Shown piece after piece: positions 951 to 45,732 of a DNA stretch of 64,000 nucleotides. The number at the start of each line of letters is the position of its first letter. The first letter of the stretch is position 1. The notes beneath the pieces were generated by a model. It worked only from the letters and a program-made list of their open reading frames with translations. It had not been told where the DNA came from and made no database searches. Source of the DNA: Escherichia coli O127:H6 str. E2348/69 (GTDB lineage Bacteria; Pseudomonadota; Gammaproteobacteria; Enterobacterales; Enterobacteriaceae); NCBI RefSeq assembly GCF_000026545.1, contig NC_011601.1; one strand, given 5' to 3'. The position numbers were made by a program, and so were the translations under genes.

Positions 951-1708
951 GGTAACCACATAGCCAGTGCCAACGTTTTATCATCATCCGTACGCTCGTT
1001 TACCGCCGGGCTGGACAAAAACTGCTTTAACAATTCAGGTAATAAATCGAGTTGTTCCTGCGTTGCTGACGCCAGTCCATTGAAAAACGGGGTAAAGAAA
1101 GGCACATGCGGAGAATTATCCAGCATATTTAACGCCAGTCGCTGAATACCATCCGTAAATGCTGCAACTTTATGCGCACGCTCAGTGCTGGTGAAAGTTT
1201 CCAGTCTGGAAACGGCATCTTCATCGGTAATGAAGTGCGTCATATTGGCATATTCACCCACCATCGGCGTGAGCGGCAGTTGCAAACCGTGACCCAAATC
1301 TACCACCACGCCGCCATCGCCAATCTGCATAATCAAGGTGCCATTAGCTGATGAAATCAATCCCAAAAACGTGCAGGCAAAATCGCGAACCGCTAATTCT
1401 TTGGCTTCCGCCTCGGCAAAAAGTCGCTGACGAATGGTCAGCACAATGTCCGTTGCGAGAACATCATTAAGCCCCAATTCCCCGCCCTGCACTTTTTGCG
1501 ACATATAAGCCATCGCTTCATTGACGGCGAGCATCGCACCTTCGCCTCCCTGCGAGGCGCTACCTGCGCCATCAGCGACAAATACCGACAATAATGGCTG
1601 CTGGTCATTTAACCAGGCAACCTGCATCTGGCAGGCATCCTGGCAAGGCAAGTCCGCGCTGATGTGCGACGTTCCAACGGCTGATGCATAGACCAGACGC
1701 CAGCTCAC
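947..1708 (-). CDS. pphC: PP2C-family protein phosphatase
   Basis: 253-aa ORF, PP2C-like motif [16 protein letters not shown], overlaps yegL stop by 4 nt. Confidence 0.85.
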
Positions 1709-2364
1709 ACTGACGTCCAGCCTTTTGGCGCTTCCAGCACAACTTCCGTTCCCGGCGTGGAGCGGGAAACCGAACGCAGCGAACTGGATAACCAGCTAAA
1801 CAGTTCACGGAATTGTAACCCCTGCAGAGACAAAGGCTGACGGACGCTGATTTGAGCCAGCGTCTTCATATCCGCCCCCTGAACACCGATGGAAAAGAAG
1901 GCAAACTTCTTATCTTCTTCCCCCTGAAACACTTTGTTGGCGGCAGCCTGCCACTCATCGGTTGGTGCACCATCGGTGATCAGGAAAATCCACGGACGAT
2001 AATAGGAAATACCATTGGCACGATATTCACGTTTCCGCTCCTCAACCATATCCAGGGCTTTGGTAATGGCAGCGCCCATTGGTGTATCGCCCTGGGCAAA
2101 CAGGATGGGCGGGAAAAAATTAGCGGCGCTGGTAAAGGGTTGTTCCACATGCACCGGGCCGAACGTCACAATGCCGAGTTCCACTCTTTTTAAGGCCAGC
2201 GAATCGGCAAGCAGCTCATCGCGAAAGGTAATCAATCCGGCGTTAAGTTCATTAATGGGTCTGCCGCTCATCGAGCCAGAAACATCCAGCAGCAAAATGC
2301 AGGGGCAACGAGGTTCCGGGTTACTGGCAAAATCGCTGGTGGCAAACGTGATTTGTTCGCTCAT
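1705..2364 (-). CDS. yegL: von Willebrand factor A-domain protein
   Basis: 219-aa ORF with MIDAS-type motif [11 protein letters not shown]. Confidence 0.85.
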
Positions 2365-2529
2365 AAGAAATCCTTTCTTAGAGTATTATTGAGATCCGGT
2401 ATCATACCGACTGCAATAATGAAATAAGAGCAAACGAAGAAACTTTCAGAATTAGGCCCGGCGGCGCAGAAAATTTTGCTATTCGCCTCGCAAGAACGAA
2501 GAGCCGTCGATTGACACTAAGGGCGGAGT

Positions 2530-2671
2530 GACATAATTTCAGGAGTGAGGGTAGAGCGGGGTTTCCCCCGCCCTGGTAGTCTTAGTAAGCTGGCCAGCTA
2601 ATGACTAAGAGCACCACAATGATGAGTAGCTTCATCATGACCCTTTCCTTATTTAAGGCCCCTTCCTCGGG
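2530..2671 (+). ncRNA. Sib-type antisense antitoxin RNA, approximate bounds; 3' end may be cut by the IS
   Basis: Inferred only from position antisense to the Ibs toxin ORF; ends not defined from sequence. Confidence 0.3.
2582..2638 (-). CDS. Ibs-family type I toxin peptide (18 aa, MMKLLIIVVLLVISWPAY)
   Basis: Minus-strand ATGATG start, hydrophobic 18-codon ORF ending TAA at 2582-2584, in the yegL-mdtA spacer where K-12 carries ibs/sib; too short for the ORF track. Confidence 0.7.
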   Translation of the reverse strand: MMKLLIIVVLLVISWPAY

Positions 2672-4221
2672 CTGTCTCTTATACACAAATCCCCACCCGG
2701 GGATTTGTGATGTCTGTCAGTCTGCTTTAGGGGGACTCTTTCCATCCGGTAGTTTCCTTCCTCCCCGGCAGCGATTTTTTGAACTTTTTCCTCACCCGTT
2801 GATCTTCTCTTATATTTCATTTTCTTCGGGTCTGTTATGGTACTTTCTGATTGTTATTCATGGGCTAACGAGCAGTTTGGACATGCCCGTCTCGGTGATC
2901 CGCGTCGTACACGACGCCTTGTGTCACTGGCCTCTTCTCTCGCTCAGCATGCAGGTCTTTCTATTGTGAAATCATCCCAGTCCACTGCTCAGGTTGAAGG
3001 TGCGTACCGCCTGATACGTAACCCGTCTGTGTCCCCGCAAGCCATTGCCGAAGCCGGATTTACCGCCACTGTAAGGGCATGTGAGGCTCATCCGCTGCTC
3101 CTCGCGCTGGAAGACACCACCACCATTAACTTCAGTCACAGTACGGCATCTGATGACCTGGGGAATACCACCACTAACCCGAAGACGCGCGGGCTGCTGG
3201 CTCACTCTGTCCTGATGTACGCCCCCGACAGCGCCCTGCCAGTCGGTCTTATCGAACAGCAGCGCTGGAGTCGTGCCACGGACACCTACGGTGTTAAGCA
3301 CCAGCGAAAAGAACGTCCCTATGAAGAAAAAGAAAGTTACCGCTGGCAGCAGGCTTCGGAGCGCATGGCCGAACGGCTGGGGGAGATACAGAAACGGGTA
3401 ATCACTGTCTGTGACCGGGAAGCGGATATCTGGCATTACCTGCATTATAAAGTCAGCCACGGGCAGCGCTTCGTGGTGCGTGCAGCACAGAATCGCCGGC
3501 TGGAAGAAGCACCCGGCAAGCTCTTCGAACTGCCGGAAGTCCTGGCAACCGCGGGAAGCCACACGCTGAATGTGATGCAAAAAGGCGGGCGGGCAGCCCG
3601 CCAGGCCCGGATGTTCATCAGTTACAGCGAAGTCAGCATAAAAAATCCCGACAACAGCGGCCAGGCGCTCCCGCTCACGTATGTCTGTTGCCGGGAGCAG
3701 GCAGAGGACGGCGCCTGCTGGCATCTGCTGACGTCAGAAAAAGTGGCGAGTGCCGCCGATGCGCGACGTATCGTCAGCCATTACGAGCGACGCTGGCTGA
3801 TAGAGGAATACCACAAGGCGTGGAAAAGTGGTGGTACATGTGTGGAATCGCTGCGAATGCAGACCCGGGATAACCTCGAGCGCATGGTGGTTATCAAGGC
3901 GTTTATCGCGGTGCGGGTGCTGGGCCTGCGGCAGGGCGGTATCAGTGAAGAAACACAAAATGACAGCTGTGAGAAAATACTGACGCCGACAGAGTGGAAA
4001 CTGCTGTGGGTTAAGCTGGAAGGAAAACCGCTTCCGTCACAGATGCCGACACTGAAATGGGCCTGTCTGAAACTGGCGAAACTGGGGCGATGGCATGACA
4101 GCAAACGCACCGGTCGCCCCGGTTGGGTAGTCATGTGGGATGGCTGGTTCAGACTTCAGGATATGGTTGAGGGTTACCTGGTGATGAAGTCTCTTGATCA
4201 GGAGATCTGATCAAGAGACAG
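2672..4221 (+). mobile_element. IS50/Tn5-like insertion sequence (IS4 family), copy 1, 1550 bp
   Basis: Ends CTGTCTCTTATACACAAAT (left, Tn5 outside-end-like) and CTGTCTCTTGATCAGATCT (right, inverted; identical to Tn5 inside end); flanked by 8/9-bp direct repeat tcctcggg; carries the 457-aa transposase. Confidence 0.9.
2837..4210 (+). CDS. IS50/Tn5-like DDE transposase (457 aa)
   Basis: N-terminus ...GDPRRTRRLV...EGAYRLIRNPSVS and C-terminal ...YERRWLIEEYHKAWKSG...DSKRTG motifs recall Tn5 Tnp; identical to the copy at 44194-45567. Confidence 0.9.
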   Translation: MVLSDCYSWANEQFGHARLGDPRRTRRLVSLASSLAQHAGLSIVKSSQSTAQVEGAYRLIRNPSVSPQAIAEAGFTATVRACEAHPLLLALEDTTTINFSHSTASDDLGNTTTNPKTRGLLAHSVLMYAPDSALPVGLIEQQRWSRATDTYGVKHQRKERPYEEKESYRWQQASERMAERLGEIQKRVITVCDREADIWHYLHYKVSHGQRFVVRAAQNRRLEEAPGKLFELPEVLATAGSHTLNVMQKGGRAARQARMFISYSEVSIKNPDNSGQALPLTYVCCREQAEDGACWHLLTSEKVASAADARRIVSHYERRWLIEEYHKAWKSGGTCVESLRMQTRDNLERMVVIKAFIAVRVLGLRQGGISEETQNDSCEKILTPTEWKLLWVKLEGKPLPSQMPTLKWACLKLAKLGRWHDSKRTGRPGWVVMWDGWFRLQDMVEGYLVMKSLDQEI

Positions 4222-42379: not shown

Positions 42380-42652
42380 TTATTTGATATAAGAATCCAG
42401 CACCTTCAGAACGACATCCAGATCTTCTTCACGTTTTAGCTCATCCCCCTGGTGAACGATGTGTTCCGTCAGATGGCCTTTAATCACTTCCCGCATCAGA
42501 CCGTTTACCGCGCCACGGATAGCAGCAATCTGTTGTAAAACTGCAGCGCATTCATGCGGTTCGTCGAGCATTTTCTTGAGCGCCACGACCTGGCCCTGAA
42601 TCTTACTGGCACGCGCTTTCAGTTTCTGTTTATCACGGATTGTATGAGACAT
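42380..42652 (-). CDS. rcnR: Ni/Co-responsive repressor RcnR (CsoR/RcnR family)
   Basis: 90-aa ORF, divergent from rcnA. Confidence 0.93.
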
Positions 42653-42700: not shown

Positions 42701-42735
42701 TACTGGGGGGTAGTATCAGGTACTGGGGGGGAGTA
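42701..42735. promoter_or_regulatory. RcnR operator, two TACT-G6/7-N-AGTA sites
   Basis: TACTGGGGGGTAGTA and TACTGGGGGGGAGTA in the rcnR-rcnA spacer. Confidence 0.8.
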
Positions 42736-42772: not shown

Positions 42773-43603
42773 ATGACCGAATTTACAACACTTCTTCAGC
42801 AAGGAAACGCCTGGTTCTTCATCCCCAGCGCCATCTTACTTGGTGCGCTTCATGGCCTAGAACCGGGGCACTCAAAAACGATGATGGCGGCGTTTATCAT
42901 CGCCATCAAAGGCACCATTAAACAGGCGGTGATGCTCGGACTGGCAGCAACCATTTCGCATACCGCAGTGGTCTGGTTAATTGCCTTTGGCGGGATGGTG
43001 ATCAGCAAACGCTTTACTGCTCAATCAGCAGAACCGTGGCTCCAGTTGATTTCCGCAGTGATCATTATTAGCACCGCGTTCTGGATGTTCTGGCGTACCT
43101 GGCGCGGCGAACGCAACTGGCTGGAGAATATGCACGAGCATGATCATGATCATGAGCATCATCACCACGATCACGAAGATCACCACGACCATGGACATCA
43201 TCACCATCACGAACATGGCGAGTATCAGGATGCCCATGCACGAGCCCATGCCAATGACATTAAACGACGCTTTGATGGTAGAGAGGTCACCAACTGGCAA
43301 ATTTTGCTATTTGGCTTAACCGGTGGCCTTATCCCCTGCCCGGCAGCAATTACCGTGCTGTTGATTTGCATTCAGTTGAAAGCCCTGACACTGGGCGCAA
43401 CACTGGTCGTCAGTTTCAGCCTCGGCCTGGCGTTAACGCTTGTCACCGTAGGCGTTGGCGCAGCAATCAGCGTTCAGCAGGTCGCAAAACGCTGGAGCGG
43501 ATTTAACACTCTCGCTAAACGCGCTCCCTATTTTTCCAGTCTGTTGATTGGCTTAGTTGGTGTGTATATGGGCGTACATGGCTTCATGGGCATAATGCGA
43601 TAA
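42773..43603 (+). CDS. rcnA: Nickel/cobalt efflux protein RcnA
   Basis: 276-aa membrane ORF with His-rich loop HEHDHDHEHHHHDHEDHHDHGHHHHHEH. Confidence 0.93.
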   Translation: MTEFTTLLQQGNAWFFIPSAILLGALHGLEPGHSKTMMAAFIIAIKGTIKQAVMLGLAATISHTAVVWLIAFGGMVISKRFTAQSAEPWLQLISAVIIISTAFWMFWRTWRGERNWLENMHEHDHDHEHHHHDHEDHHDHGHHHHHEHGEYQDAHARAHANDIKRRFDGREVTNWQILLFGLTGGLIPCPAAITVLLICIQLKALTLGATLVVSFSLGLALTLVTVGVGAAISVQQVAKRWSGFNTLAKRAPYFSSLLIGLVGVYMGVHGFMGIMR

Positions 43604-43821: not shown

Positions 43822-44160
43822 ATGACCATTAAAAATAAGATGTTGCTGGGTGCGCTTTTGCTGGTTACCAGTGCCGCCTGGGCCGCACCAGCCACCGCGG
43901 GTTCGACCAATACCTCGGGAATTTCTAAGTATGAGTTAAGCAGTTTCATTGCTGACTTTAAGCATTTCAAACCAGGTGACACCGTCCCAGAGATGTACCG
44001 CACCGATGAGTACAACATTAAGCAGTGGCAGTTACGTAACCTGCCCGCGCCTGATGCCGGGACGCACTGGACCTATATGGGTGGCGCGTACGTGTTGATC
44101 AGCGACACCGACGGTAAAATCATTAAAGCCTACGACGGTGAGATTTTTTATCATCGCTAA
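43822..44160 (+). CDS. rcnB: Periplasmic Ni/Co homeostasis protein RcnB (YohN)
   Basis: 112-aa reading from MTIKNKMLLGALLLVTSAAWA (signal peptide); track ORF carries an upstream extension. Confidence 0.88.
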   Translation: MTIKNKMLLGALLLVTSAAWAAPATAGSTNTSGISKYELSSFIADFKHFKPGDTVPEMYRTDEYNIKQWQLRNLPAPDAGTHWTYMGGAYVLISDTDGKIIKAYDGEIFYHR

Positions 44161-44182: not shown

Positions 44183-45732
44183 CTGTCTCTTGATCAGATC
44201 TCCTGATCAAGAGACTTCATCACCAGGTAACCCTCAACCATATCCTGAAGTCTGAACCAGCCATCCCACATGACTACCCAACCGGGGCGACCGGTGCGTT
44301 TGCTGTCATGCCATCGCCCCAGTTTCGCCAGTTTCAGACAGGCCCATTTCAGTGTCGGCATCTGTGACGGAAGCGGTTTTCCTTCCAGCTTAACCCACAG
44401 CAGTTTCCACTCTGTCGGCGTCAGTATTTTCTCACAGCTGTCATTTTGTGTTTCTTCACTGATACCGCCCTGCCGCAGGCCCAGCACCCGCACCGCGATA
44501 AACGCCTTGATAACCACCATGCGCTCGAGGTTATCCCGGGTCTGCATTCGCAGCGATTCCACACATGTACCACCACTTTTCCACGCCTTGTGGTATTCCT
44601 CTATCAGCCAGCGTCGCTCGTAATGGCTGACGATACGTCGCGCATCGGCGGCACTCGCCACTTTTTCTGACGTCAGCAGATGCCAGCAGGCGCCGTCCTC
44701 TGCCTGCTCCCGGCAACAGACATACGTGAGCGGGAGCGCCTGGCCGCTGTTGTCGGGATTTTTTATGCTGACTTCGCTGTAACTGATGAACATCCGGGCC
44801 TGGCGGGCTGCCCGCCCGCCTTTTTGCATCACATTCAGCGTGTGGCTTCCCGCGGTTGCCAGGACTTCCGGCAGTTCGAAGAGCTTGCCGGGTGCTTCTT
44901 CCAGCCGGCGATTCTGTGCTGCACGCACCACGAAGCGCTGCCCGTGGCTGACTTTATAATGCAGGTAATGCCAGATATCCGCTTCCCGGTCACAGACAGT
45001 GATTACCCGTTTCTGTATCTCCCCCAGCCGTTCGGCCATGCGCTCCGAAGCCTGCTGCCAGCGGTAACTTTCTTTTTCTTCATAGGGACGTTCTTTTCGC
45101 TGGTGCTTAACACCGTAGGTGTCCGTGGCACGACTCCAGCGCTGCTGTTCGATAAGACCGACTGGCAGGGCGCTGTCGGGGGCGTACATCAGGACAGAGT
45201 GAGCCAGCAGCCCGCGCGTCTTCGGGTTAGTGGTGGTATTCCCCAGGTCATCAGATGCCGTACTGTGACTGAAGTTAATGGTGGTGGTGTCTTCCAGCGC
45301 GAGGAGCAGCGGATGAGCCTCACATGCCCTTACAGTGGCGGTAAATCCGGCTTCGGCAATGGCTTGCGGGGACACAGACGGGTTACGTATCAGGCGGTAC
45401 GCACCTTCAACCTGAGCAGTGGACTGGGATGATTTCACAATAGAAAGACCTGCATGCTGAGCGAGAGAAGAGGCCAGTGACACAAGGCGTCGTGTACGAC
45501 GCGGATCACCGAGACGGGCATGTCCAAACTGCTCGTTAGCCCATGAATAACAATCAGAAAGTACCATAACAGACCCGAAGAAAATGAAATATAAGAGAAG
45601 ATCAACGGGTGAGGAAAAAGTTCAAAAAATCGCTGCCGGGGAGGAAGGAAACTACCGGATGGAAAGAGTCCCCCTAAAGCAGACTGACAGACATCACAAA
45701 TCCCCGGGTGGGGATTTGTGTATAAGAGACAG
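44183..45732 (-). mobile_element. IS50/Tn5-like insertion sequence (IS4 family), copy 2, 1550 bp, inverted relative to copy 1
   Basis: Same terminal sequences as copy 1; perfect 9-bp target-site duplication CGGAGAGAG at 44174-44182 and 45733-45741. Confidence 0.92.
44194..45567 (-). CDS. IS50/Tn5-like DDE transposase (457 aa)
   Basis: Protein identical to the ORF at 2837-4210. Confidence 0.9.
   Translation of the reverse strand: MVLSDCYSWANEQFGHARLGDPRRTRRLVSLASSLAQHAGLSIVKSSQSTAQVEGAYRLIRNPSVSPQAIAEAGFTATVRACEAHPLLLALEDTTTINFSHSTASDDLGNTTTNPKTRGLLAHSVLMYAPDSALPVGLIEQQRWSRATDTYGVKHQRKERPYEEKESYRWQQASERMAERLGEIQKRVITVCDREADIWHYLHYKVSHGQRFVVRAAQNRRLEEAPGKLFELPEVLATAGSHTLNVMQKGGRAARQARMFISYSEVSIKNPDNSGQALPLTYVCCREQAEDGACWHLLTSEKVASAADARRIVSHYERRWLIEEYHKAWKSGGTCVESLRMQTRDNLERMVVIKAFIAVRVLGLRQGGISEETQNDSCEKILTPTEWKLLWVKLEGKPLPSQMPTLKWACLKLAKLGRWHDSKRTGRPGWVVMWDGWFRLQDMVEGYLVMKSLDQEI

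Follow-up and report, generated by a model that had tools for sequence, protein, structure and literature searches.

Six-base length variation in the His-rich loop of the nickel/cobalt efflux protein RcnA of Escherichia coli, and the allele of strain E2348/69

The rcn locus and the His-rich loop of RcnA

We analyzed a 64,000-nucleotide stretch of Escherichia coli O127:H6 strain E2348/69 (RefSeq assembly GCF_000026545.1, contig NC_011601.1), referred to here as the window and numbered from its first letter. The rcn locus within it has the canonical layout, with a divergent rcnR accompanied by operator boxes, then rcnA, and rcnB downstream.

42380..42652, minus strand: rcnR, divergent Ni/Co-responsive repressor (NF011613, 197 bits, and annotation)
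42773..43603, plus strand: rcnA coding sequence, 276 aa plus stop; the product is a NicO-family Ni/Co efflux protein
43822..44160, plus strand: rcnB, periplasmic accessory protein (annotation of the E2348/69 record and of K-12)

Between rcnR and rcnA lie two TACT-G6-N-AGTA boxes (42701-42715, TACTGGGGGGTAGTA, and 42721-42735, TACTGGGGGGGAGTA). No such box is expected by chance in this intergenic region, and we take the pair to represent the described RcnR operator type. Downstream, an IS4-family transposase (ISEc13 by the E2348/69 annotation; 44194-45567, minus strand) lies between rcnB and yehA, which in K-12 are separated only by a short gap. Two minus-strand open reading frames of 91 and 57 aa that overlap the His-codon tract of rcnA were rejected as genes; both are Met/Val-rich mirror images of the His codons and were without support.

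The rcnA open reading frame was matched by NF007454 ("nickel/cobalt efflux transporter") over residues 1-276 at 565 bits (cutoff, 195) and by the Pfam NicO family PF03824 at 237 bits (cutoff, 27.7). RefSeq names it rcnA (WP_000134611.1) in the E2348/69 record, which is 100% identical over the gene, and the exact 276-aa protein (CAS09799.1) is recorded from 47 contigs in several archives. These matches identify the product as a predicted NicO-family Ni/Co exporter, with efflux activity itself taken from the literature, where PMC5183578 cites Rodrigue et al. 2005 for Ni/Co efflux by RcnA. PMC11247825 calls unsettled both the role of the loop and the mechanism of the protein, which might be export or chelation via the loop.

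A reading of the DNA made from the sequence alone, without database searches (the sequence-only reading), had described a CAT/CAC-rich low-complexity stretch at 43135-43215 encoding the His-rich loop of rcnA. The sequence is as described, and the full tract is slightly wider.

43133..43222, plus strand: His/Asp/Glu-rich loop tract, codons 121-150 of rcnA, HEHDHDHEHHHHDHEDHHDHGHHHHHEHGE

Histidine accounts for 18 of the 30 loop residues (10 CAT and 8 CAC codons), the remainder being 5 Asp, 5 Glu, and 2 Gly, and for only 6 of the 246 residues outside the loop (Fisher P = 1e-15 for loop enrichment; binomial P = 2e-22 against a background of 2.3% His that we set). The hydrophobic blocks of RcnA span approximately residues 37-110 and 175-276, with the His-rich segment between the two halves of the protein; together with the NF007454, PF03824, and RefSeq assignments, this position bears out the reading of the tract as the RcnA loop. 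Arg/Lys-rich segments border the loop on both sides (WRTWRGER before and KRRFDGR after), which by the positive-inside rule suggests a cytoplasmic location, as does a DeepTMHMM prediction (PMC11247825). The central loop of RcnA is probably cytoplasmic and unstructured, and its composition, read with the literature, suggests that it may bind metal.

Repeat structure in the window allele is modest. Over 43139..43216, Tandem Repeats Finder reported repeats of period 6 (CATGAT, with 85% matches over 4.3 copies), of period 9, and of period 18 (score 72, with 3.2 copies). Periodicity was controlled by shuffling the loop codons and scoring the autocorrelation and the longest matching run at period 6. 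Against this control, the period-6 signal of the window allele gave P = 0.09 for autocorrelation and P = 0.08 for the longest matching run, and most of that signal is supplied by a single CATGAT duplication. The corresponding values were P = 0.2-0.6 for the 274-aa parent of the window allele described below, and P was at most 0.002 for O157-type and HE-type alleles. For the window tract, low-complexity DNA containing cryptic repeats is a better description than a genuine array.

Two minor features of the tract were also observed. Its 90 bp hold four GATC (Dam) sites, at 43142, 43148, 43169, and 43178, where 0.33 would be expected from the density in the window; each is created where an Asp-His pair is encoded as GAT-CAY, and one of the four comes from the CATGAT duplication. 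The tract also contains a palindromic run, ATGATCATGATCAT.

Allele lengths in E2348/69 and across E. coli

As the sequence-only reading had stated, RcnA is 276 aa in the window and 274 aa in K-12 (825 bp in MG1655). Alignment of the window with Nissle 1917 and with K-12 placed the difference in a single gap of 6 bases, at a run of CATGAT CATGAT CATGAG.

43139..43150, plus strand: tandem duplication of CATGAT (two copies, His-Asp-His-Asp), with the 6-base gap relative to Nissle 1917 and K-12

The K-12 loop also differs from that of the window by substitutions (HGHDYE... versus HEHDHE... in the window, and EHHH versus EDHH). At codon 122, where the window has GAG, Nissle 1917 and DA61218 have the synonymous codon GAA; BLAST identity to Nissle-type alleles was 96.9%, and megablast splits the gap in such a way that the GAA at codon 122 is hidden. 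We searched complete E. coli genomes for a parent allele using 185 bp of window sequence from which one CATGAT had been removed. Of 60 ranks sampled at even spacing, 15 matched this sequence at 100% identity, equivalent to about one quarter of 5,363 genomes, and 1,874 genomes matched it at 99% identity or above. The exact window loop, with both copies, occurred in only three complete genomes, all of them O127:H6. The E2348/69 allele thus equals a 274-aa allele that is very common, extended by one exact copy of CATGAT, and its parent is not the K-12 allele.

The sequence-only reading had proposed that the repeat structure makes the loop length-variable and that invariance of loop length across strains would refute this. 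We compared rcnA alleles from complete E. coli genomes, 5,365 of 5,426 of which carry the gene, and found protein lengths from 265 to 289 aa. Annotated coding sequences, followed by lengths implied by BLAST matches, were as follows.

798 bp, 265 aa, annotated coding sequence
804 bp, 267 aa, annotated coding sequence
825 bp, 274 aa, annotated coding sequence
831 bp, 276 aa, annotated coding sequence
837 bp, 278 aa, annotated coding sequence
840 bp, 279 aa, annotated coding sequence
846 bp, 281 aa, annotated coding sequence
852 bp, 283 aa, annotated coding sequence
858 bp, 285 aa, annotated coding sequence
about 810 bp, about 269 aa, implied by BLAST match length
864 bp, 287 aa, implied by BLAST match length, 6 bp above the 858-bp allele
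870 bp, 289 aa, implied by BLAST match length, 12 bp above the 858-bp allele

A 277-aa form is also present in the protein collection. The 825-bp class made up about 85-86% of genomes in three systematic rank samples (33/39, 51/59, and 51/59). In protein and codon alignments of 19 alleles, all internal indels fell in the loop, between the anchors NWLENM and YQDAHARAH; they were in frame throughout and mostly comprised whole 6-bp His-Asp or His-Glu units, and RcnA outside the loop was nearly invariant. The unit series seen in these alignments were GACCAC in 4, 5, 6, or 7 copies and CACGAG in 3 or 4 copies (AR_0013 and CFSAN061771). The one exception to loop-confined length change was found in a few alleles that lose the last residue via an earlier stop, such that part of the protein-length variation reflects a stop codon change and not the loop. 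This was seen at the 3' end of rcnA in MLI106K2 and SCPM-O-B-9504, which reads ...FMGIM* versus ...FMGIMR*.

Alleles of 831 bp of any kind were found in only about 10 genomes. The four that were fetched were all different, and three of them were single-unit duplications, with the following differences from DA61218 outside the loop.

Window: CATGAT duplication, 2 non-loop differences from DA61218
Z1323HEC0475: CATGAG duplication, 8 non-loop differences from DA61218
95-3322: CACGAG duplication, 0 non-loop differences from DA61218
MS1657: a fourth distinct 831-bp allele

The class to which the window allele belongs is nearly length-stable, with +6 variants in about 10 of about 1,900 genomes; non-modal lengths accounted for approximately 0.5% of this class versus approximately 53% of the O157 class. 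The proposal that repeat structure makes the loop length-variable is thus supported across E. coli, where lengths change mostly in 6-bp units, with the qualification that the window allele itself is weakly repetitive and belongs to a nearly stable class. Considering this weak repeat signal and the single length shared by about 86% of genomes, "length-variable" fits the locus better than the allele.

Only alleles in which at least four hexamers form a perfect array, as in O157:H7, are strongly variable. The copy numbers of GACCAC in the O157-type allele among complete genomes were as follows.

4 copies: 32 complete genomes
5 copies: 21 complete genomes
6 copies: 133 complete genomes
7 copies: 64 complete genomes
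8 copies: 23 complete genomes
9 copies: at least 9 complete genomes

The named matches were mostly O157:H7 and included Sakai (4 copies), EC4115 and TW14359 (7 copies each), and 86-24 (8 copies). Among three strains with 6, 7, and 4 copies, 8.1 kb of flanking sequence showed no more than one SNP and the rest of rcnA was identical, indicating that the array changes far faster than its surroundings. A series of numbered cattle isolates (107-149; CP0285xx-CP0286xx) with near-equal genome sizes carried 4, 7, or 8 units, with 4 in strain 131 and 7 in strains 132-135, which hints that the repeat may have changed among very close relatives.

Between the deep allele classes (K-12, B2, O157, and short HE types), the loop shows substitutions and complex indels, and these differences follow the divergence outside the loop. 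Part of the length diversity is for this reason old, having been inherited or recombined, and does not reflect recent slippage.

Two structural observations were made at the same locus in other strains. In strain 81EVA, an IS3-family element (81EVA 1404-2930; window position approximately 43174) truncates rcnA, with the remnant beginning inside the His-loop tract and flagged by RefSeq as a partial pseudogene. In O157-type genomes, the thiM TPP riboswitch is separated from rcnR by about 2.3 kb of additional DNA (1028-3300 in the compared sequences L017-L019) that E2348/69 and K-12 lack; encoded in it are an HTH-like fragment, a small "outer membrane protein," and a hypothetical protein.

Known typing loci and related loops

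By the published primers, the tract is the site of MLVA locus TR7, also called O157-19. The former name reportedly goes back to Noller et al. 2003 and the latter to Keys et al. 2005. The primers bracket the His tract, with a predicted amplicon of 368 bp in the window and 389 bp in O157:H7 Z869.

43054..43072, plus strand: TR7 forward primer site, exact in the window and in O157:H7 Z869
43402..43421, minus strand: TR7 reverse primer site, one mismatch in the window and exact in O157:H7 Z869

The TR7 repeat GACCAC and its primers are described in PMC2246123. As O157-19, the locus has a 6-bp unit and gave 5 alleles in 15 isolates (D = 0.65; PMC3768571), and its diversity across the two reports is 0.65-0.71 (PMC2246123 and PMC3768571). 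The copy-number polymorphism expected of such a locus was found here as 4 to 9 copies of GACCAC on conserved flanks and, for the window allele, as one versus two copies of CATGAT. The window tract and TR7 of O157:H7 thus share a site and a 6-bp His-Asp unit in the RcnA loop. They differ in that the O157:H7 array is a perfect (GACCAC)4-9 and highly polymorphic, whereas the window tract is degenerate, with CATGAT x 2 as its sole exact tandem.

Comparable repeats are on record from other enterobacterial rcnA genes. The Salmonella enterica VNTR STTR5 is a CACGAC repeat in yohM, which is rcnA, found in the part of YohM lying between two of its domains (PMC5183578 and PMC1781188). It shares with the E. 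coli tract the gene, the protein region, the in-frame hexamer, and use in MLVA, and CACGAC is a rotated GACCAC; unlike the window allele, STTR5, as described in these papers, has far higher copy numbers (dominant alleles of 8-14 units) and a far higher mutation rate. PMC5183578 speculates that extreme repeat lengths could destabilize YohM. In Klebsiella pneumoniae, MLVA locus 27 is a CATGGT repeat in rcnA, whose copy number runs from 0-19 and whose diversity index is 81.7 (PMC3948817). The likeness here, compared by description, is a hexanucleotide VNTR inside rcnA, but the Klebsiella unit encodes His-Gly rather than the His-Asp or His-Glu of E. coli. The variability of this locus is therefore already known, as a standard typing repeat in O157:H7, Salmonella, and Klebsiella, and the window tract is the E. 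coli counterpart of TR7/O157-19 and STTR5. A coding microsatellite could be recognized from raw sequence by the sequence-only reading, and the present result is mainly one of bookkeeping.

Flexible His-rich loops between transmembrane helices, thought to bind or sense metal, are also found in CDF transporters such as plant MTP1 and mammalian ZnT, and these cytoplasmic loops vary in length between homologues. The CDF family is unrelated to NicO, and the resemblance to the RcnA loop is by description. Within NicO, RcnA of cable bacteria has a central, predicted cytoplasmic His-rich loop of lineage-variable length (PMC11247825). That loop is 100-123 aa with 33-53 His and is fixed across the clade, whereas the E. 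coli loop changes in two-residue steps between strains; no VNTR behavior is reported for it in PMC11247825. We also considered whether the generic E. coli MLVA locus CVN014, which spans 2 to 11 repeats within ST131 (PMC3407997), might be the rcnA site, and judged this unlikely because the rcnA class that includes the B2 strains compared here is almost length-invariant.

Probable unit slippage in the loop and its alternatives

We consider it highly probable that the RcnA loop is variable in length through slippage of 6-bp units and that the E2348/69 allele is the 274-aa allele plus one CATGAT. The loop is built of degenerate 6-bp, two-codon units of the form CAY-GAN (His-Asp or His-Glu) together with CAY runs, and whole units would be gained or dropped when strands slip on these short direct repeats in the course of replication. 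Since steps are of 6 bp, the reading frame would always be kept and the loop would shift by two residues per step. Mutability depends on the perfection and length of the array, such that alleles with one or two imperfect copies, including the window allele, change rarely, and perfect arrays of at least four copies, such as (GACCAC)4-9 in O157:H7, mutate fast enough for epidemiological typing. The protein tolerates such changes, probably because the loop is not a folded element but a flexible and redundant segment that chelates metal. The observed pattern of whole-unit steps, constant frame, independent recurrence, and a rate that rises with perfect copy number is the classical signature of a coding microsatellite that changes by replication slippage or by unit-register unequal exchange. 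The footprint of slippage would be indistinguishable from that of unequal recombination between units. The length changes themselves are probably near-neutral.

An alternative reading of the allele comparison is that the length differences mark old, stable allele lineages maintained by descent and homologous recombination, with a site that is hardly mutable today and repeats that are a by-product of composition. The predominance of 825 bp, at about 86% of genomes, is consistent with this, as are the parent allele, which has no significant periodicity beyond its codon composition, and the covariation of loop classes with divergence outside the loop, where O157-type alleles show 30-39 differences from the other alleles. 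Repeat-number changes at TR7 and STTR5 within clonal outbreaks or laboratory lineages are reported in the MLVA literature. In the genomes compared here, O157:H7 strains with at most one SNP in 8.1-kb flanks hold 4, 6, or 7 GACCAC units, and copy numbers from 4 to 9 are all common in the O157 clone. Three different one-unit duplications lead to 276 aa, two of them on near-identical B2 backgrounds, and the locus discriminates as an MLVA marker inside single farms (PMC2246123). With these observations against it, stable old lineages are an improbable account of the length differences as a whole, and slippage of units is preferred.

Neutral slippage was also weighed against an adaptive "tuning knob," in which the number of His-Asp or His-Glu pairs would set metal capacity or the efflux set-point. 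The points in favor of such a knob are indirect. Variation is always in frame and every allele keeps the His-rich character, but a 6-bp unit preserves frame automatically, which makes this uninformative on selection. Hexamer VNTRs arose independently in rcnA of E. coli, Salmonella, and Klebsiella; STTR5 alleles in Salmonella cluster mid-range, which their authors read as a possible functional constraint (PMC5183578); and the RcnA loop is strongly expanded in cable bacteria (PMC11247825). Against a tuning function, no phenotype is tied to loop length in the sources that we read, the commonest E. coli alleles are degenerate and stable, unlike a selected mutable switch, and the window variant is limited to a handful of genomes. 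We regard such tuning as very improbable as an explanation of the variation seen here. That the extra 6 bp in E2348/69 could be a sequencing or assembly artefact has next to no likelihood: low-complexity tracts are generally prone to assembly and polishing errors, but the same loop is found in three separate O127:H6 complete assemblies, the exact 276-aa protein stands on 47 contigs from several archives, and the change is a clean in-frame unit. The presence of the allele in these three genomes and 47 contigs effectively rules out an assembly error.

Taken as a claim about the protein, the proposition that loop length determines quantitatively the capacity of RcnA to buffer Ni/Co or its set-point for export, with selection keeping the hexamer array mutable, strikes us as unlikely. 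If true, it would explain the independent rcnA VNTRs in E. coli O157, Salmonella, and Klebsiella, and the rare additional unit of E2348/69 would reflect not neutral drift but a minor adjustment of function.

A phase-variable on/off switch was considered as well. The tract lies wholly within the coding sequence, and the steps between length classes are multiples of 3, in most cases 6; phase variation was rejected because all indels are in frame, and every fetched rcnA allele translates without an internal stop.
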